IMG/VR virus record: IMGVR_UViG_2909257012_000006
Coordinates: 1-41,364 of that record
Direction: 5' to 3' (one strand)
DNA from: a virus
Taxonomy: Duplodnaviria; Heunggongvirae; Uroviricota; Caudoviricetes
Length of the DNA: 41,364 bases
In this document: piece after piece, positions 1,267 to 28,597 of the stretch
Layout: every line of letters starts with the position of its first letter
Numbering within the stretch: position 1 is the first letter of the stretch
Position numbers and translations under genes: made by a program
The notes under the pieces: generated by a model
What the model was told of the DNA's origin: nothing
What the model saw: the letters and a program-made list of their open reading frames with translations, nothing else
Databases searched by the model: none

Positions 1267-3450
1267 CTATCTAATCCTGAACATTACAATTGGAGCAGAG
1301 CCAGAAGATAAAGGGCCTGACCAATGGTATCTAATTCTGAAAGAAGACTCACTTGGAGTTCCGATAATTTCTATTGGACTTAAAGTTGCACCTTCTGCAG
1401 AACCAGCAGGTTGTCTAAACCCCAACACAGCAATCTGGTTTGGTGTTGGGGCATACAGAAAATTATGCTCAATATCAACCTCGTTAGATTCGCTACCTGT
1501 TGGGTTTGGCATATTCCACTCAATATAATCGTCAGTTGATTTACCATTTATTGAGTTTCCAACTGTTGCCATAATCGTCCACGTACACGTCCTGTTAAGG
1601 GCTGCCATTCTATCACCTAAAAACCTATTATAACCATTTGCGCCTGAAGTGATTAATCTTATATTCTCTGATGCACATGTGCCAATGCTGTTAAATCCAG
1701 TGCAATCAGAAGAAAGCCCCTTCGCAGTTATATCTACGCTGTTCGCAAAACAAATTGTTGTTGAATTTACTGCATCGCGAATAAGAGCAGAACCCGAAAA
1801 CAAATTATCACACGAACCTCTTATATTATTACCACCGCCGGATAAGTAACATAAATTTCCTTTTATCCTCTTGGATGTAAAAGTAACATTGTTATTGTCA
1901 CCAGTAACAGAAAGAAGCGAGGCTTTAATAGGGGCATTGTCACTCTGTAACTGACCAATTTGGTTTATTGTAACTACATTGTTGTTGCCTGATATAGCTA
2001 TCTGATACCCATCATCATCAATTGAAGGTGAATATCTTTGTGCTTTTATATTGATGTTAAGTGTCCAGATTGTACCGTTATCCAGAAGCATGTCGCGGAG
2101 AGGAGAAATTGAATCGCCAGTGTAGTTATCTGGCATTCTTCCACACGCCCTGGCTTCTGCGATGGCAACAACACCATGTGCCCCGTTGGTAAACCAGTAA
2201 CCACCTAAACTATTATCAACACACACGTGCCTCGCATTGAATCGGTTAACACCCAGCGTCTTAAATCCATAGCCATAATACACAGCATATACATGGATGT
2301 AATTTATATCGACATGTCCTGTATAAGGAGACTGATTATCAAGAACAATTCCATGACATGGTTCTCCGGGATAAAGAAGGCTTTGTTGGCTTGTTGCTGT
2401 TAATCTTGCGCTGTAAGGAGGAAGTCCACACGGGCCAAAAACAATATAATCTAGGTTAATATCACCTGGCCCCCTGAACACAACCCCCTCTCTCCCTGAA
2501 ATTCTTCCCGTTATCCTCACTTCAGAGGCGTGTTCCTGATTATCATGAAATGATCCATACCCCTCTGAATAGAGAGCATGTTCTGCAACATTATTAATCT
2601 CAACGTCAATGTGGTACATGCTGCCGAATATTTTAATGGCAGTTCCATAGTCATTGTTAACAGTGTCGCAAGTTCTCCATGAGTTTGTATCTCTTTGCAA
2701 GTCAAGATAATTACCATCAATGGTCATATCTTTTATGCTAAATCCATATGGCGCATCAGACAGATTTTCCACAACGCCAAAGCCATGTGTTTTAAATACA
2801 TCTGTATTACTACCTTTTTTAACATACAGAAATGTTGCTCTCTTTCCAGAGCCTTTATGATGAACGCCTGTATAAAGAATGATAGGAGAATCTATTAAAT
2901 AAACACCTGGAGGGTAAAATATTTCCCCGCCACCATTATTAAAAGCAGCTAATGCTGCGGCATTAATGGCATCAGAATCTGATGTCAATCCATCTGCTTT
3001 AGCTCCATAGTATTGAGGTGTTTTCCTGATTGCATCGTAAACCGTTGAAGCGCCGAAACCGATATATTTACTACCATCTGTACCGCCAATAAGTAATTTA
3101 AACTGATCCGGGTCATACTTCAGCACATTCGGAAAATAGAACTGCTGTGTACCATACGCATCATAAACAGCCATAGAATGGCCTTGCACGGTTACGAATT
3201 TGGCAATCTGTCCGTTATATACCGGATATCCAGCAGCGTTAATGATTATTGGTTGCGAAACAGGAACGTGAGAACCGTCTTCATTCTCCACATAAACCTG
3301 AATCTGGTTTTCAGGGTTTACCGGGTCAGTGTCAATTTTACCGATATAAATTTTGCCATTGGCATTTGCTTTAAACGAGCGAGCTAAAGTAAATAACTGA
3401 CTTGGTTGTGAAACAACAACGTTGTATAATTGTTCTGGCATAATAAACAT
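1267..3450 (-). CDS. Tailspike protein; P22-like N-terminal head-binding domain with a different receptor-binding domain
   Basis: 727 aa; N-terminus [37 protein letters not shown]...[13 protein letters not shown] matches recalled P22 gp9 head-binding domain; remainder diverges. Confidence 0.85.
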
Positions 3451-8978: not shown

Positions 8979-10390
8979 TCCACCGTAAATTGAATGCCTG
9001 ATTTTGAGGTATATGATCCAACCTGATTCCGTGGTTCTCCTGAAGGTGTCGAATCTTGTGCTGGCGCTGCGTCAGTATTCATTGACATATACCGCTTAAC
9101 GGCACTCCCCAATGATTCACCTTTTTTAACATCCAACCCCAATATCTGACCGCCATTACGCGATTGTCCTGGATTGCCATTCGCGCTCATCCACTCGGCT
9201 TTAAACTCATTAAACTGCGCGTTTCGTCGCTCAAGGTTTGCCATCGCATCAAGCCATCTTGCGACCGTCTCAGGGTTATCCATGTCAGTTGGTGCACCCT
9301 GCCGAACGATCTCAACGTCTTTATCCGTTGCGGGGCCGGGAGGTAGGAATTTAAGAACCTGACTGTTAACAAGGGCATTTTGGCGGATGCGCAAATCACG
9401 CAATGTTGTATCGCTTCCGGTAAGTTTTGCGAACATGTTCTGTGCGTTACCGAACAAACCTGTCGTTGGTTTTTCTGCTCTGAACTGTTGAGCAAGCGCA
9501 CTCATAGAATTGGCTGAGTTTGATGATGCTGTAGCATTGTTTACAGCCGTCTCGATGCCTTTTTCCATGTTTACTGACAGCTTAGGTGCTTCGCTAATCA
9601 ACTGCTGAGCCTTTTCCTGTGCTTGCTGCATCTTAAACCCGAACTCTTGCTGATCCAGAGCCAAGCGTTGTGCTGCGATATTGTGTCCAGTCATTGCTGA
9701 CTGATAGGAAAGGTTTTGCCCTCTCGCCTGAAGTGCTTCTCCAGCCTGATTGCTGCGGATTGTCTCTGCCAGTTTGCCTCGGTCAATTTCACGACCAGCC
9801 ATCTTGTCCTGAACAGCAAACGCCTTTTCTGGCCCAAGTGCACCGAGAGACATAGTAGTCAGCATGTGTGATAGCTGCTCTGGATTCTGAATACCTGTCT
9901 GAATCATCCAGTCAGCATTAGCACCAACGCGATTTAACCTATCCTTGTTGTCAGTAATGAATTTACTGTAGGCTTCCGGTCCCTGAGAAAGAGCGACGTT
10001 AGCCCTCATGGCTAAATCGCCCATATCGTTGCGTTGCTGCTCATTAAGACCGGAAAACGCCTGTTGTGCCTGTGCAACAAACGCTGGATTTTCCTTGGCA
10101 AACTTAAATAGTCCCGATGGATCACCAGAAGCCCATGCATCAGCGTGAACCTTATTGAACGCACTAATAGCTTTCTGTTGCTGTTCCTGATTGTAAATAT
10201 CAGCAACTCCAGCCAGACCACGTAACGCGGTCAGGCCAACGTTATTTGCACCTGAGCGAGCCAGTTCATTGTTTTCGCGGATCAGACCAAGCGTTGCGTT
10301 AATGTCGCTTGCCTTTGGCGCATTCTCATTTTGCGTACCGATGCCAGCCAGAAAACCACCAGAATTAATACCCTGTTGCCACGTAGCCAT
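8975..10390 (-). CDS. Ejection protein, P22 gp20-like
   Basis: 471 aa; size and synteny. Confidence 0.7.
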
Positions 10391-10399
10391 GATTACCCC

Positions 10400-11092
10400 T
10401 TAAAACAACGAGCCAAGCAGACCAAGACCAGCACCGATACCAGCACCCCACGGAGTTGATAGCTCGAGAGCACTGGCTATGCCACCACCCAAAAGCGCAC
10501 CGGATGCAGCACCACTAACCCCCTGCTGCAATGCTGACGGTCGGTTGGCGTTTGCCGCAGCCAGCGCCGCGCTTTGCTGTGAAATCTGACTCATGTTGTT
10601 GGCATATGTTTGCCCGGCGTTTGCCTGCCCCTGAAGAGCGCCAAGACCGATATTTGCCAGGTTGTTGTAATTGTTCATTTGTCCAGATAGCCATTGCTGA
10701 CCAAGCGTTGGTGCGATTGTTGCTAACTGATTACTGGTTGCGGTGGAACCCAATCCACCTGTTGCTTCCGCTGCCGCCAGACTCTGATAGCGAGCCTGAC
10801 CTGCAAGGCCTTTATACTGCTGAGAGTTGTAATACTGGTTAAGCGCCTGACCTTGCCCCTCCAGAGACGATAAGTTCTCGAGGCTGCCGACATACTTCTC
10901 AGCCAGAGGAGTAAACGGCTTCAGGTTGTTCATGATGGTGTTGAACTGCTGATTTTGCAGGTCTGCGGCATACTTCTGAGCTTCTGCGGCATACTTTGCG
11001 CTTTTATCAGAGCTGCCACCTTTCCCGCCTTTTTCAGGGCAATAAGGTTCCTCGCCGCGCAGTTTTCTGCCCAGCTTAAATGCATATAACAT
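10400..11092 (-). CDS. Ejection protein, P22 gp7-like
   Basis: 230 aa; Gly/Ala/Gln-rich; synteny. Confidence 0.65.
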   Translation of the reverse strand: MLYAFKLGRKLRGEEPYCPEKGGKGGSSDKSAKYAAEAQKYAADLQNQQFNTIMNNLKPFTPLAEKYVGSLENLSSLEGQGQALNQYYNSQQYKGLAGQARYQSLAAAEATGGLGSTATSNQLATIAPTLGQQWLSGQMNNYNNLANIGLGALQGQANAGQTYANNMSQISQQSAALAAANANRPSALQQGVSGAASGALLGGGIASALELSTPWGAGIGAGLGLLGSLF

Positions 11093-22576: not shown

Positions 22577-23098
22577 TCAGCAAGCGATATCGAGAGTCAA
22601 CTGCAGTTGCTCGCGCCAGTACTCGACATTTGCTTCAATAACCGGCTTATCCCATCGCCAGCGAGCCATCTCTCTTGCCCCATTGCTGGCTTTTGATTTC
22701 CGGTCATCGCGAATGCGACATGCTTGCTCATATTTCTGCTGCTCAGTCAGTTCACCGCGAAGCAGACTATCAATGTGCAGGTCGCACCACACAGCAAAAC
22801 GAGCATCACACCAACGGGCAAATGCAACTGAAAGTTTTGGATGTAGCCACGTACCACCACCCCTGTCCTTTCGTGCCTTGCTGGTTTTTACATACCTCGA
22901 TTGTGAGGGATGTAAAATTTGAGATTCTTTCCCGGTCAACGCTTCGTCTAAAGCACGAACGTATTCAAGCGTTTCTGCCAAACGCATCCAGTTATCAATG
23001 CGTTTCCCAAATCTCTCAGCAACACCTGTGACGTTGATCCAACCATCAGTGTTGAAACTGACAATTTCACCTTTGTAATTAAGTGGCACGATATTCAT
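22577..23098 (-). CDS. KilA-N domain protein
   Basis: 173 aa; N-terminal pattern judged KilA-N-like from the translation; position corresponds to P22 orf201 region. Confidence 0.6.
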   Translation of the reverse strand: MNIVPLNYKGEIVSFNTDGWINVTGVAERFGKRIDNWMRLAETLEYVRALDEALTGKESQILHPSQSRYVKTSKARKDRGGGTWLHPKLSVAFARWCDARFAVWCDLHIDSLLRGELTEQQKYEQACRIRDDRKSKASNGAREMARWRWDKPVIEANVEYWREQLQLTLDIAC

Positions 23099-23212
23099 AA
23101 CGTTTACCTACCATTTGAAATGAACCTTTGCCGCACAGGAAACCAGCCCACCGAGGCTCGCCAGCACTAACTGGTATCCTCAAAGGCCCATTCCAAAGGG
23201 TCAGGCTCGGTG

Positions 23213-23268
23213 TAAAAAACATGCGTTGCGGTACGCATTTATTGCAAAAAAGCCCCGCATCGCGAGGC
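23213..23268 (-). terminator. Two tandem rho-independent terminators downstream of Rz
   Basis: On - strand: ATGCGT-accgca-ACGCAT + GTTTTTT, and GCCTCGC-gat-GCGGGGC + TTTTTT. Confidence 0.5.
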
Positions 23269-23300
23269 TCATTAAATGGACTTTGTGATTTGCAAAAAAA

Positions 23301-23738: not shown

Positions 23739-24211
23739 ACCTCAATCTCTCTGACCGCTCCGCCAGCCTCTTTGAATTTTGCAATCAGGCTGTCAGCCTT
23801 ATGCTCGAACTGGCCATAACCAGCCCCCGGCAGTGAAGCCCAGATGTTGCTGCAACGGTCGATAGCCTGACGGATATCACCGCGATCAATCATCGGCAAA
23901 GCGCCACGTTCCTTAATCTGCTGCAATGCCACAGCGTCCTGGCTTTTCGGAGAGAAATCTTTCAGGCCAAGCTGCTTACGATAGGCATCCCACCAACGGG
24001 AAAGAAGCTGATAGCGACCGGCTGCTGTTGATTTGAGTTTTGGGTTTAGCGTGACAAGTTTGCGAGGGTGATCGGAGTAATCAGTGAATAGCTCTCCACC
24101 AACAATGACGTCATAACCATGATTTCTGGTTTTCTGACGTCCGTTATCAGTTCCCTCTGACCACGCCAGCATATCGAGGAACGCCTTACGTTGATTATTG
24201 ATTTCCACCAT
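23735..24211 (-). CDS. R: Endolysin, lambda R-type lytic transglycosylase
   Basis: 158 aa; [39 protein letters not shown] near-identical to recalled lambda R. Confidence 0.93.
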
Positions 24212-24518
24212 CTTCTACTCCGGCTTTTTTAGCAGCGAAGCGTTTGATAAGCGAACCAATCGAGTCAGTACCGATGTAGCCGATGAACACGCTCGTTATA
24301 TAAGCGAGATTGCTACTTAGTCCGGCGAAGTCGAGAAGGTCACGAATGAACCAGGCGATAATGGCGCACATCGTTGCGTCGATTACTGTTTTTGTAAACG
24401 CACCGCCATTATATCTGCCGCGAAGGTACGCCATTGCAAACGCAAGGATTGCCCCGATGCCTTGTTCCTTTGCCGCGAGAATGGCGGCTAACAGGTCATT
24501 TTTTTCTGGCATCTTCAT
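24195..24518 (-). CDS. S: Holin, lambda S-type with dual start (MKM)
   Basis: 107 aa; [39 protein letters not shown] near-identical to recalled lambda S. Confidence 0.93.
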
Positions 24519-24910
24519 GTCTTACCCCCAATAAGGGGATTTGCTCTATTTAATTAGGAATAAGGTCGATTACTGATAGAACAAATCCAGGCTACTGTGT
24601 TTAGTAATCAGATTTGTTCGTGACCGATATGCACGGGCAAAACGGCATGAGGTTGTTAGCGCAACCTCATGCCGCCCGCTTTCACGAAGGTCATGTGTAG
24701 AAGGCCGCAGCATAACTATCACTGATGAATTCAGGATAGCCAGTGGCTACGGCTCAGTTTGGGTTGTGCTGTTGCTGGGCGGCGATGACGCCTGTACGCA
24801 TTTGGTGATCCGGTTCTGCTTCCGGTATTCGCTTAATTCAGCACAACGGAAAGAGCACTCAATGCATTTAAGCCAAGCCCCATAAGGGAGAATGCTCTTA
24901 CCTGTTACAC

Positions 24911-24974
24911 AGATATAAAAAATCCCGAAACCGTTATGCAGGCTCTAACTATTACCTGCGAACTGTTTCGGGAT
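24911..24974 (-). terminator. Lambda-type tR' terminator of the late leader (6S RNA)
   Basis: On - strand AATCCCGAAAC...GTTTCGGGATT followed by TTTTTAT; surrounding leader matches recalled lambda. Confidence 0.8.
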
Positions 24975-25105
24975 TGCATTTTACAGACCTCTCAGCCTGC
25001 GATGGTTGGAGTTCCAGACGATACGTCGAAGTGACCAACTAGGCGGAATCGGTAGTAAGCGCCGCCTCTTTTTATCTCACTACCACAACGAGCGAATTAA
25101 CCCAT

Positions 25106-25597
25106 CTATCCCATACTGGAGAATTCACCATGATATTTTATCCTGGCATTTTCCATTGCCTTTCTAGCCTCCTCGATATCGTCAAAACACCCTACATGAA
25201 TCCTTTTACCATTGACTCTAATTCTTCCAACCCACTTGTTTGCAGCAGAATTAAAAGTCACCCCCTTCACACCAGATGAATTGTTTTTCCTCATCTTGCT
25301 GTTCCATGAGTTTTGAGTGTTAGTAACAACACGAAGATTGGCTATCCGGTTATCAGACCTATCACCATTAATATGGTCAATCACATCGGCTGGCCAATCA
25401 TTGTAAACCATCAGCCATGCAATTCTGTGGACATATAGCCGCATTCCATAAAGTTTTACCTGCAGATATCCATTTGTTTTATAGCCAACAACAGCGCCAT
25501 AGGTAAATCTAGAGGACCGAGGTGGATTCCTCCATGTAAGAATTCCAGTATCTGGATTGTAATTAAAAAGTCTCAATGCATCTTCACGTTTTAACAT
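25106..25597 (-). CDS. HNH endonuclease with AP2-like domain (homing-endonuclease-like), inserted in pR' leader
   Basis: HRIAWLMVYNDWPADVIDHINGDRSDNRIANLR and GVKGVTF...KWVGRIRVNGKRIHVGCFDDIEEARKA motifs; paralog of 3464..3964. Confidence 0.75.
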   Translation of the reverse strand: MLKREDALRLFNYNPDTGILTWRNPPRSSRFTYGAVVGYKTNGYLQVKLYGMRLYVHRIAWLMVYNDWPADVIDHINGDRSDNRIANLRVVTNTQNSWNSKMRKNNSSGVKGVTFNSAANKWVGRIRVNGKRIHVGCFDDIEEARKAMENARIKYHGEFSSMG

Positions 25598-25797
25598 AGG
25601 CGAACCACATAGATATTAGAGCCTGCTGACATAGAAATATCACCACGAGAGAAGTCGCCAAAAGCGATATTTCTCAGGCTCTATTCCTATGTGCTCTCGA
25701 GTTTATGATGCGCATGTCAGTGCGCTTAGAACTTAAAGATGAGGTGGGTAAAAACTGAAAGAATGTGAACGGATATAAATCTGCCATTCTTGAGTCA

Positions 25798-25826
25798 AAT
25801 TTACCCAACTTTATTCAAAAAGTCAA
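25798..25826 (-). promoter_or_regulatory. Late promoter pR' with Q-utilisation region (lambda type)
   Basis: On - strand TTGACT-17 bp-TAAATT then TGACTCAAGAATGG; matches recalled lambda pR' apart from a few bases; directly downstream of Q. Confidence 0.8.
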
Positions 25827-25868
25827 TATCATGCCGTTAATATGTTGCCATCCGTGGCAATCATGCTG

Positions 25869-26492
25869 CTAACGTGTGACTGCATTCAAAATATTGTCTG
25901 CAATTGACTCTTCTTTGTGGCATTGCACCACCAGAGCGTCATACAGCGGCTTAACAGTGCGTGACCAGGTGGGTTGAGTAAGGTTTGGGATTAGCATCGT
26001 TACAGCGCGATATGCGGCGCTTGCTGGCATCCTTGAATAACCGACACCTTTGCATCTTCCGCACTCTTTCTCAACAACTCTCCCCCACTGCTCCGTTTTG
26101 GCTATATCAACCGCACGGCCTGTACCGTGGCAATCTCTGCATCTTGCGCCCGGCGTCGCGGCACTACGGCAATAATCCGCATAAGCGAATGTTGCGAGCA
26201 CTTGCAGTACCTTTGCCTTAGTATTTCCTTCAAGCTTTGCCACGCCACGGTATTTCCCCGATACCTTGTGTGCAAATTGCATCAGATAGTTGATAGCCTT
26301 TTGTTTGTCATTCTGGCTGAGTTCGTGCTTACCACAGAATGCAGCCATTCCGAATCCGGCCTGTGATTGCGCCATCCCCATAGCAGCCATCACATCGGTA
26401 CCGGAAAGAGAGTCAGAAGCCGTGGCCCGTGGTGAGTCGCTCATCATCGGGCTTTTTGGCGAATGAAATTTAGCTACGCTTTCGAGTCTCAT
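25869..26492 (-). CDS. Q: Late antiterminator Q (lambda type)
   Basis: 207 aa; MRLESVAKFHSPKSPMMSDSPRATASDSLSGTDVMAAMGMAQSQAGFGMAAFCGKHE near-identical to recalled lambda Q. Confidence 0.93.
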   Translation of the reverse strand: MRLESVAKFHSPKSPMMSDSPRATASDSLSGTDVMAAMGMAQSQAGFGMAAFCGKHELSQNDKQKAINYLMQFAHKVSGKYRGVAKLEGNTKAKVLQVLATFAYADYCRSAATPGARCRDCHGTGRAVDIAKTEQWGRVVEKECGRCKGVGYSRMPASAAYRAVTMLIPNLTQPTWSRTVKPLYDALVVQCHKEESIADNILNAVTR

Positions 26493-27903: not shown

Positions 27904-28010
27904 CCTGTTGGTGTTCTTTCACACCGGAGACACCATCGATTCCAGTAAGGTTGCCCGGGTCGAAAGCGATCGCCTTCCTTTCGCTCTCCACATCGATAAC
28001 AGTGCTTCAT
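27837..28010 (-). CDS. NinD-like Cys-rich protein
   Basis: [16 protein letters not shown]...WCLRCE; start overlaps methyltransferase stop (ATGA). Confidence 0.45.
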
Positions 28011-28597
28011 GCGATCACCATTTTGCATGGTTTAATCGCCATGCCGGTAGCCAGTTCAAAATCGGAGTCGCACTGATTGCCCCACATATCCCACCCGGTC
28101 ACTTTGTCGCGGCTAAATAACTCACAGCGCGGCACGTCGCCAAGCAACTTAGCTAACATGTCTCTTACGATCGGTGGTTTTGCACTGTGCTCCATTCTCG
28201 GTGCGGTAAAGTGCTGGCATATGGAAGCGTCCATTCTCTCAGGCAACCGCCCTCGAACAGCAAACAAGCAATCCTCGCTATTTGCCCTGGTCATATGCCC
28301 CATTCCGATCGCACTGTTGCCTTTGTGCTTATTGGTTTTGTGCCAGGTAAAGCCTTTCATAGTCATCAACCTGAATCCCCATGCCTCAACTACCTTTAGC
28401 GCTTCGGCTGGCTGTGTCGGCACCCACCACATCGCTAACAAGCAAGATTCTGGATCCGCTAAATCCCATACTGGCAGTCGGCAAATGTCCTGAACATTCA
28501 TAACATCGTATTTATGTCCAGCACCGCGATTGCCATCGTTGGCTTTGTCGCGATATTGCCAAGGCGGATCTGCGTAAATAAGTCGGTATTTGTTCAT
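28007..28597 (-). CDS. MT-A70 family N6-adenine DNA methyltransferase
   Basis: DPPW motif near N-terminus ([10 protein letters not shown]); 196 aa. Confidence 0.8.

Follow-up and report, generated by a model that had tools for sequence, protein, structure and literature searches.

An HNH-AP2 endonuclease cassette with a conserved structured RNA leader in the lambda-type pR′ leader of a P22-like prophage

The occupied pR′ leader and its nuclease gene

The IMG/VR virus record IMGVR_UViG_2909257012_000006 (Caudoviricetes; 41,364 nt, the whole of which is called the window below) is a P22-like prophage with a lambda-type Q gene, pR′ promoter, tR′ terminator and lysis module. Its late leader is interrupted between pR′ and tR′ by a cassette of 683 nt that carries the gene of an HNH-AP2 endonuclease. 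All features of the locus described here lie on the minus strand. The Q antiterminator gene (25869..26492, 207 aa) was assigned to the lambda type from its match to Pfam PF03589 (Antiterm, E 1.3e-57) and its colinearity with lambda Q. The late promoter pR′ (25798..25826) consists of the −35 hexamer TTGACT, a 17-nt spacer with the Q-binding element TTTTGAATAAAGTTGGG and the −10 hexamer TAAATT. Both hexamers are identical to those of lambda (J02459) and 15 of the 17 spacer bases are the same. A promoter scan of the window also reported this site, with two sigma-70 promoters found when 3.3 were expected; as this is not above chance, the call of pR′ at 25826..25798 is based on the homology to lambda and not on scan statistics.

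With +1 set as in lambda, at 25791, the hexamer AAGAAT occupies positions +1 to +6 (25786..25791), where lambda has the −10-like AACGAT that induces the sigma70-dependent pause. Alignment with lambda and mEp506 placed the cassette at 25107..25789, in place of the single lambda base C+3. The junction reads AAGAATGG|CAGATTT in the window and AACGATGG|GTTAATT in lambda, so that downstream of TGACTC the two leaders run as AAGAATGG CAGATTTATATCC... and AACGATGG GTTAATTCGCTCG, respectively. On this left side the match to the lambda transcript comprises two identical bases and six similar ones, in place of the about 10 transcribed bases given in the original prediction. On the right side lambda sequence is back from GATGGGTTAATTCGCTCG (25106 downward), the G of the HNH stop codon TAG being lambda +4, and continues with ~97% identity through tR′ into the S, R and Rz genes. 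The resumed leader covers lambda +4 to the end of the 6S RNA (24917..25106) and includes the intrinsic terminator tR′ (24917..24974; hairpin followed by U6), which is identical to that of lambda. The tetranucleotide ATGG is found at both cassette junctions. In the alignment to the lambda Q-S region both flanks were colinear and the cassette is an insertion relative to a lambda-type leader; the original prediction was borne out as to the promoter, the foreign stretch with its nuclease gene, the restart of the lambda leader at the HNH stop and the ATGG repeats.

The cassette itself is composed of a variable 5′ spacer of 58 nt (25726..25783; nucleotide diversity pi 2.1% among occupied loci), a conserved structured RNA leader motif of 128 nt (25598..25725; 157 bits with the covariance model R1 described below) and the endonuclease gene (25106..25597, 163 aa). 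By eye, the 5′ spacer is similar to the beginning of late leaders that go with other Q types (loci L007 and L069).

The 163-aa protein matched the HNH_3 profile (PF13392) with 62.5 bits against a cut-off of 24.8 (E 2.8e-17) and, marginally, the AP2 profile with 33.8 bits against a cut-off of 33.3. It also matched phrog_99, annotated as 'HNH endonuclease' (E 3.5e-75). Of the residues expected at an HNH active site, H57, D74, H75, N77, N83, N87 and N99 do not vary among 60 homologues, and N96 is shared by at least 90% of them; the window protein has them all. An AlphaFold2 model built with the 60 homologues was confident (mean pLDDT 95.3), and its predicted fold resembles a solved HNH homing endonuclease of the I-HmuI kind. 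Foldseek gave support for the AP2 part only, and this domain is seen in both profile and fold. Judged from its sequence, the window protein is an ordinary member of a known HNH family. A relation to CasPR-type AP2 repressors was considered and set aside, as the CasPR family combines CapR with AP2 and lacks HNH.

HNH genes are known near late genes in cos phages, and this speaks for a role of the protein in packaging, together with terminase, as for HK97 gp74. We regard such a function as the least probable of the explanations considered. The prophage has P22-type headful packaging genes, which makes a gp74-like role unlikely; the gene is upstream of the lysis genes and not beside terminase, its domain family is HNH_3 plus AP2, and broken copies occur in otherwise similar prophages.

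The position of the cassette touches the sequences that serve Q loading. Q is loaded at a pause at +16/+17, for which an elemental pause sequence is required along with sigma binding (PMC5001585); this sequence has G/C at the upstream hybrid edge and a pyrimidine followed by G at +16/+17 (PMC5001585). Relative to TATAAT, the hexamer AAGAAT has kept A2 and T6 and gained A4 and A5, and is closer to consensus than AACGAT. Positions +7 to +9 are still G/C, with GGC in the window and GGG in lambda, whereas +16/+17 have A and T in place of lambda's C and G. On the basis of these bases AAGAAT and GGC should still hold the sigma70 RNA polymerase for Q loading. The claim that the insertion replaces the native pause context therefore applies to the pause-site bases at +16/+17 only and not to the −10-like hexamer, which is retained as AAGAAT. 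In related cassettes in other Q contexts, AATGCT or AATGAT is found at the hexamer position.

No sigma-70-like promoter was found by the promoter scan ahead of the HNH open reading frame (ORF) or in its leader, the only other match being inside the ORF. The standard terminator scan misses tR′, which has a large loop, and a separate scan for U-runs and hairpins was made. It detected no strong terminator between pR′ and the HNH ORF; the sole candidate is an A/U-rich hairpin of −7.4 kcal/mol with U5 at 25754. The tR′ hairpin (−23.5 kcal/mol, before UUUUUU) is intact. Since the HNH gene appears to have no promoter of its own and is located upstream of an intact tR′, we attribute its transcription to pR′, a promoter that is constitutive in lysogens, with termination at tR′ (PMC7547250). 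The distance from +1 to tR′ is ~875 nt in the window and 194 nt in lambda, and the prophage should make an ~875-nt pR′-tR′ RNA with the HNH gene instead of the 194-nt 6S RNA, also in lysogens. The predicted expression from the short pR′ transcript holds in this sense for the RNA; it does not necessarily hold for the protein, as the leader probably locks translation.

A conserved RNA structure ahead of the nuclease and of other accessory genes

The ~190 bp ahead of the ORF, part of the foreign sequence of the original prediction, are more than filler: 128 nt of them (25725..25598) form a strongly conserved structured RNA with covariation, and they are more conserved than the HNH protein. The 5′-most element is the hairpin H1 (GCGCA-CUGACA-UGCGC, 25710..25725), which is conserved without compensatory change and hence uninformative. 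A long imperfect hairpin with basal, middle and inner helices (25606..25693) was derived from RNAalifold and covariation. The Shine-Dalgarno (SD)-like GGUGAU is paired in the inner helix, the AUG of a short leader ORF is located in a 7-nt bulge, and the 3′ strand of the basal helix lies just ahead of the HNH AUG. The leader ORF has 13 codons (MSAGSNIYVVRLC, 25591..25632) and its stop codon UAA overlaps the HNH start (AUGUUAA). The same overlap is present in L005, L006 and L069. In L007, L013, L023, L024 and L038 the HNH gene has an upstream start in frame, with a 12-codon extension instead, and in L068 the start codon is absent at the leader-ORF position.

The fold of the window leader has z = −3.5 when compared to shuffled sequences. 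For seven variants folded with RNAalifold, 97.9% of the cells were paired and four pairs showed compensatory changes, with slid controls at 26–52%. In a set of 19 distinct sequences 93.7% of the cells were paired and 20 of the 34 pairs were changed on both sides (80 cells); none of 500 shuffles reached any of the five measures, and slid controls paired at 32–47%. The structure has many G-U pairs on the minus strand, which fits an RNA made from this strand.

A further helix, H2, joins 6–7 nt just 5′ of the long hairpin (CGAGAG, 25694..25699) to the 3′ end of its apical loop (CUCUCG, 25646..25651), the first being complementary to 25651..25646. A per-sequence search found this complementarity in all full-length variants; over the 19 variants, this position is occupied by six distinct pairs of complementary sequences. 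From the geometry, H2 and the 12-bp inner helix would be mutually exclusive. As H2 cannot coexist with the inner helix, a two-state switch is a reasonable hypothesis. A hand-drawn pseudoknot of H2 and a crossing helix was discarded, RNAalifold having given the continuous long hairpin, and so was a hammerhead-like or other ribozyme core considered by eye, with a core mismatch and no Rfam match. In Rfam 15 neither the HNH-type nor a post-lysis-type copy of the leader found a match at E ≤ 1. In a literature search of incomplete coverage, neither the leader motif nor an HNH gene located in a pR′ leader was found to have been described before.

For the phage homing endonuclease genes I-TevI, mobE and segB, sequestration of the ribosome site in a hairpin is established (PMC3014915). 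As in these cases, a nuclease gene within a strongly transcribed unit has its SD or AUG covered by a stable helix, which in the window is predicted and supported by covariation. Unlike in these, the structure in the window extends over ~90 nt and comprises three helices, with the start codon in a bulge, a leader ORF coupled to the gene and a conserved competing helix; the leader RNA also serves non-nuclease genes, and an internal promoter within the hairpin, as in the T4-type systems, was not detected in the promoter scan.

The covariance model R1, built from seven leaders, was used to find further full-length copies of the motif. These are located after Rz or the lysis genes, just downstream of a terminator GCCTCGC...GCGGGGCTTTTTT, and the genes directly after them are of the Rha-family, pRha/ANT-like, T5orf172/GIY-YIG-like, KilA-N and membrane-protein types. 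The window itself holds a second, diverged copy (23099..23238; 23.6 bits, E 1.9e-5 in 501 nt with the filters of R1 off), which follows a terminator at 23269..23245 and directly precedes a KilA-N gene (23098..22577); a homologous copy is present in L011. A BLAST search with one post-lysis copy matched at least 155 phage records; 73 of these are Stx2a phages, and phages of Salmonella, Klebsiella, Enterobacter, Hafnia and Pantoea are also among them. The match coincides with gene starts, namely those of Rha-like, KilA-N and GIY-YIG genes. Genes of the Bro network (Rha, KilA-N, ANT, T5orf172) occur in lambdoid phages and satellites, and HNH_3-AP2 has been found fused to Bro segments (PMC10111431). 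The families with the shared leader motif are those of this network, and we found no account of a shared structured 5′ leader for these genes in the literature searched.

The presence of the motif before at least five unrelated post-lysis cargo genes, each after a homologous terminator, would be expected if the window cassette were a passive moron, a unit of leader and gene (with or without terminator) that is shuffled by recombination at the conserved leader or terminator or at short homologies, the nuclease being uninvolved. The PeSL elements of T4-type phages, mobile regulatory cassettes made of a promoter and a terminator stem-loop (PMC2839356), offer a precedent. Like PeSL, the leader motif is a regulatory element of ~100–130 nt that is repeated before different non-essential genes and has associated insertions and deletions. 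Unlike PeSL, it has no promoter in the scan, it follows a terminator, and its RNA covariation points to translational control. The boundaries in the window also do not fit such shuffling well, as they are located at pR′ +3 and at the stop codon and not at the motif or a terminator, and the catalytic residues of the nuclease are conserved.

Related loci, empty sites and decaying copies

The closest relatives of the protein (85, 74, 66, 61 and 56% identity) are all encoded ~250–270 bp downstream of a Q gene. Across the window and these contexts the Q proteins are 207, 254, 273 and 276 aa long. Upstream of the 85% relative there is a diverged lambda-type Q, upstream of the 74% relative an ES18-type Q of 254 aa, and upstream of the 66 and 61% relatives Q proteins of 273 aa and, in Xenorhabdus bovienii, 276 aa. 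The contig of the 56% relative ends within the upstream ORF, of which 172 aa were called, without a Pfam assignment. A more distant, 180-aa HNH-AP2 protein (47% identity) was obtained from a Citrobacter sp. FP75 prophage (L038, 1684..3702) by a protein scan of species-representative genomes, which returned relatives of ≤48% identity only and none of the close family. Its gene lies between a Q of the unrelated Q82 family (PF06323) and a P21-type holin, in the order Q, promoter, terminator, two tRNA genes, second terminator, diverged leader motif, HNH-AP2 and holin; a second copy of the motif is found after Rz, ahead of a gene for a 143-aa membrane protein. Holin and lysis genes are located downstream in the three contigs long enough, those of the 85 and 74% relatives and L038. 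A 34% relative is located elsewhere, in an early region.

When the ES18-type case was compared with the cassette-free ES18 and SI8, identity stopped right after the −10 hexamer and returned past a tRNA gene. Salmonella phage SI8 (L083, 1065..1790) has an ES18-type Q (254 aa) and promoter, followed by a lambda-like leader AACGATGGGTTAC...GGCGGCGCTCACC... and a tRNA gene after the terminator; the type of Q can therefore be exchanged without that of the leader, and vice versa. In the Xenorhabdus-type loci (L068, 1900..2248; L069, 1230..1345) an intrinsic terminator is placed between pR′ and the leader motif, and its near-copy (…GGGGCTTTTTCGTATCTG) is located after the HNH stop. With terminator copies on both sides, the cassette of L068 and L069 is bracketed by duplicated terminators. 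In L068 a tRNA-like sequence was also seen after the cassette.

This bracketing of the HNH unit is again in line with a passive moron, but shuffling alone does not predict that HNH-AP2 genes prefer the Q-to-holin interval even beside a Q of a different Pfam family. Passive shuffling is the main rival explanation of the window cassette, made plausible by the shared motif; we hold it to be clearly the less probable one, the Q-proximal position and the junctions speaking against it as a complete account. The distribution points to a nuclease lineage that prefers the late-leader region across several Q types, a pattern that is expected for homing without being proof of it. The placement had been considered unusual, which holds for the position inside the pR′ leader; it is not a one-off, as the relatives fill the Q-to-holin interval in several Q contexts.

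The insert was absent from the 50,697 phage records searched, 188 of which contain the flanks (lambda, HK630, DE3 and mEp506 among them). Of 5426 complete E. coli genomes, 16 had an occupied site, and the same cassette was found in a further 16 IMG/VR contigs and four metagenome contigs; these four, all of the window type, were the real ones among 11 matches of a metagenome pattern scan, the other seven being due to chance. Uninterrupted junctions, scored with a 51-nt probe of which at least 80% had to be covered, were detected in 400 of the 5426 E. coli genomes, so that empty sites are documented in these as well as in lambda and mEp506. With its presence in 16 of 5426 genomes and in none of the phage records, the decay of some copies and no promoter of its own upstream, the ORF does not behave as a core gene of these phages: the cassette is rare, dispensable and non-core.

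AAGAAT was present in every occupied locus and in no uninterrupted junction among the 5426 E. coli genomes; the closest full-length match there was 96.1%, corresponding to two mismatches. As no empty junction has AAGAAT, we conclude that the change from AACGAT to AAGAAT rides with the cassette. The occupied loci differ in their pR′ spacer, which is lambda's own in L013, L023 and L076 and of the mEp506 type in others; the same cassette joined to different spacers places its left edge between the −10 hexamer and +3. Over 21 occupied loci, pi was 3.2% for the Q gene, 2.8% for the pR′ region, 2.1% for the first 57 nt of the cassette, 1.1% for the HNH ORF and 0.15% for the leader motif (two segregating sites in 129 bp).

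The copies that cover the ORF include broken ones in four of 19 cases, two with in-frame deletions of 327 bp and two with frameshifts. The deletion is identical in L009 and L016, where the HNH domain is gone and 54 aa are left, and the frameshift is identical in L013 and L023, with 46 aa left. The leader motif is unaltered in all four despite the broken ORFs. In three E. coli genomes remnants of the cassette were found: only its first 116 nt are left, fused to the 3′ half of tR′ at an 8-bp direct repeat, AGAGCCTG. One copy of this repeat is part of the leader motif (25675..25682) and the other of the tR′ loop (24939..24946); the deletion derivatives L002 and L003 are joined at it. These deletions at a repeat common to motif and tR′ count in favour of the passive moron.

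Short-repeat deletions at this locus, together with ATGG at both cassette ends, would also suit a reversed history, in which the occupied leader is the original one, reduced to the lambda form by a deletion between the ATGG repeats. We consider this highly improbable. The expected deletion product AAGAATGGGTT was not found in the 5426 E. coli genomes, empty leaders are far commoner and more diverse and occur also with another Q type (SI8), and the cassette is less diverse than its flanks.

Some minor features of the remnants were noted as well. In L002 (4000..4150) and L003 (3000..3200) a tRNA-Asn and then a tRNA-Thr gene follow the tR′ half. In L002 the 5′ strand of H2 is predicted to pair with the leftover tR′ arm ahead of the U-run, which may result in a makeshift terminator. 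The L003 remnant contains a G+C-rich, hairpin-forming insertion of 47 bp (3063..3109, GTGACTGCTCCCCGCCCTGTCGGGCGAGGG...) that resembles a small REP-type or miniature element. The loop of lambda tR′ reads AATAGTTAGAGCCTG (window 24939..24955; lambda L001 946..962) and the leader motif AATAGAGCCTG; this likeness may be due to chance or be a trace of common ancestry.

Possible homing and exclusion, and relation to known systems

From these sequence comparisons it is probable, in our view, that the cassette is a homing-type selfish or accessory HNH element in a late-operon leader, which is transcribed from pR′, locked in translation and copied into empty lambda-type leaders. Its load is, in order, the AAGAAT-GGC initial region, the 58-nt spacer, the 128-nt RNA leader and the two-domain nuclease gene. 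pR′ would transcribe the HNH gene within the ~875-nt short transcript that ends at tR′, with translation normally locked by the long hairpin, which would pair the ribosome site of the leader ORF so that the HNH start could be reached only by coupling. Formation of H2 could release this lock. The nuclease would then nick or cut cassette-free lambda-type leaders near AACGATGGGTTAAT, and repair from a cassette-bearing genome would copy the cassette together with its AAGAAT flank. Homing is consistent with the coexistence of occupied and intact empty alleles of one defined site, with the difference between the two alleles at +3/+4 (AAGAAT and AACGAT, respectively), with the constant linkage of AAGAAT to the cassette and the lower diversity of the cassette relative to Q, and with the dispensability of the gene, as seen from degenerate copies (four of 19 broken, plus the remnants without the gene). 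The ATGG at the junctions may reflect a microhomology-mediated or homing-type insertion.

Several points weigh against this account or parts of it. The bases at +16/+17 are off the elemental pause sequence, so that Q loading may be altered, and the weak hairpin with U5 at 25754 might attenuate some of the transcripts before they reach the gene. The 19-sequence alignment (A6), on which the larger covariation set is built, was fitted to the model structure. H2 was unsupported in a fixed-column test, in which L068 needs a 1-nt slip, and single per-sequence cases were not significant. The low diversity of the cassette could reflect selection or a small pool of occupied alleles and not recent spread. 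Finally, the same leader is found before non-nuclease genes, and homing is therefore not the only possible way in which the cassette could have moved.

A domesticated exclusion nuclease was considered as well. Constant low expression in lysogens would cut the late leader of superinfecting cassette-free lambda-type phages, to the benefit of prophage and host. In its favour are the position of the gene upstream of tR′ without its own promoter, the activity of pR′ in lysogens, the conservation of the presumed target in ~400 E. coli prophages and the retention of the arrangement across relatives at 56–85% protein identity. About one in five copies is broken, however, and the conserved hairpin argues that translation is kept off; exclusion moreover overlaps with homing and is compatible with it rather than an alternative. 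As an explanation in its own right we find it improbable. A broader proposal, to which we give some credence though not as our favoured view, is that the leader represents a widespread, previously undescribed class of two-state RNA switches, with a long SD-sequestering hairpin opposed to a competing helix, gating translation of accessory genes in lambdoid late operons (HNH-AP2, Rha, KilA-N, GIY-YIG-like). In the window this switch would let a nuclease gene sit in the constitutive pR′ transcript, and the enzyme, released in small quantity in the lysogen, could cut the late leaders of incoming cassette-free lambda-type phages, with homing and exclusion combined.

The closest known kind of element to the homing-type cassette is given by the phage HNH homing endonucleases (I-HmuI of SPO1, mobE of Aeh1 and the mob genes of T4) and by the HNH-AP2 proteins of phrog_99. 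In contrast to those homing genes, the site in the window is inside a promoter-proximal Q-loading leader, three bases past the transcription start, rather than in or between ordinary genes. Accessory functions in lambdoid pR′ leaders are known from the stx genes downstream of tR′ and from the small RNA StxS, which is derived from the pR′-tR′ transcript (PMC7547250). The window shares with these the use of the constitutive, Q-controlled late leader as an accessory niche, and differs from them in having a protein gene upstream of tR′, which lengthens the short transcript from 194 to ~875 nt. As far as our searches show, the placement of a nuclease inside the pR′ leader with a replacement pause element appears to be new, as does the widely shared structured leader.

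Few regulatory sites in biology have been studied as well as the Q/pR′/tR′ leader of lambda. A natural variant in which all bases from +3 on are replaced offers a ready test of which early-transcribed bases are needed for sigma-dependent pausing and Q loading, and tR′ has been shifted ~680 nt further with the late switch apparently still working. The loci of several Q types suggest a selfish nuclease lineage specialised on the late-leader site. The RNA leader may be of wider reach, being covariation-backed, not in Rfam and located ahead of Rha and KilA-N genes, whose regulation is poorly understood.

Two observations concern the rest of the prophage. A gene for an MT-A70-family DNA methyltransferase is located in the nin region (28007..28597, minus strand) and is annotated in the prophage of E. 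coli AR_0058 (L081), which does not differ from the window in the 1101 bases compared. This AR_0058 prophage carries two frameshifted copies of ISEc52 (IS3 family), one in the early region (9624..10793) and one in the lysis-terminase interval (24123..25292), and may be defective.

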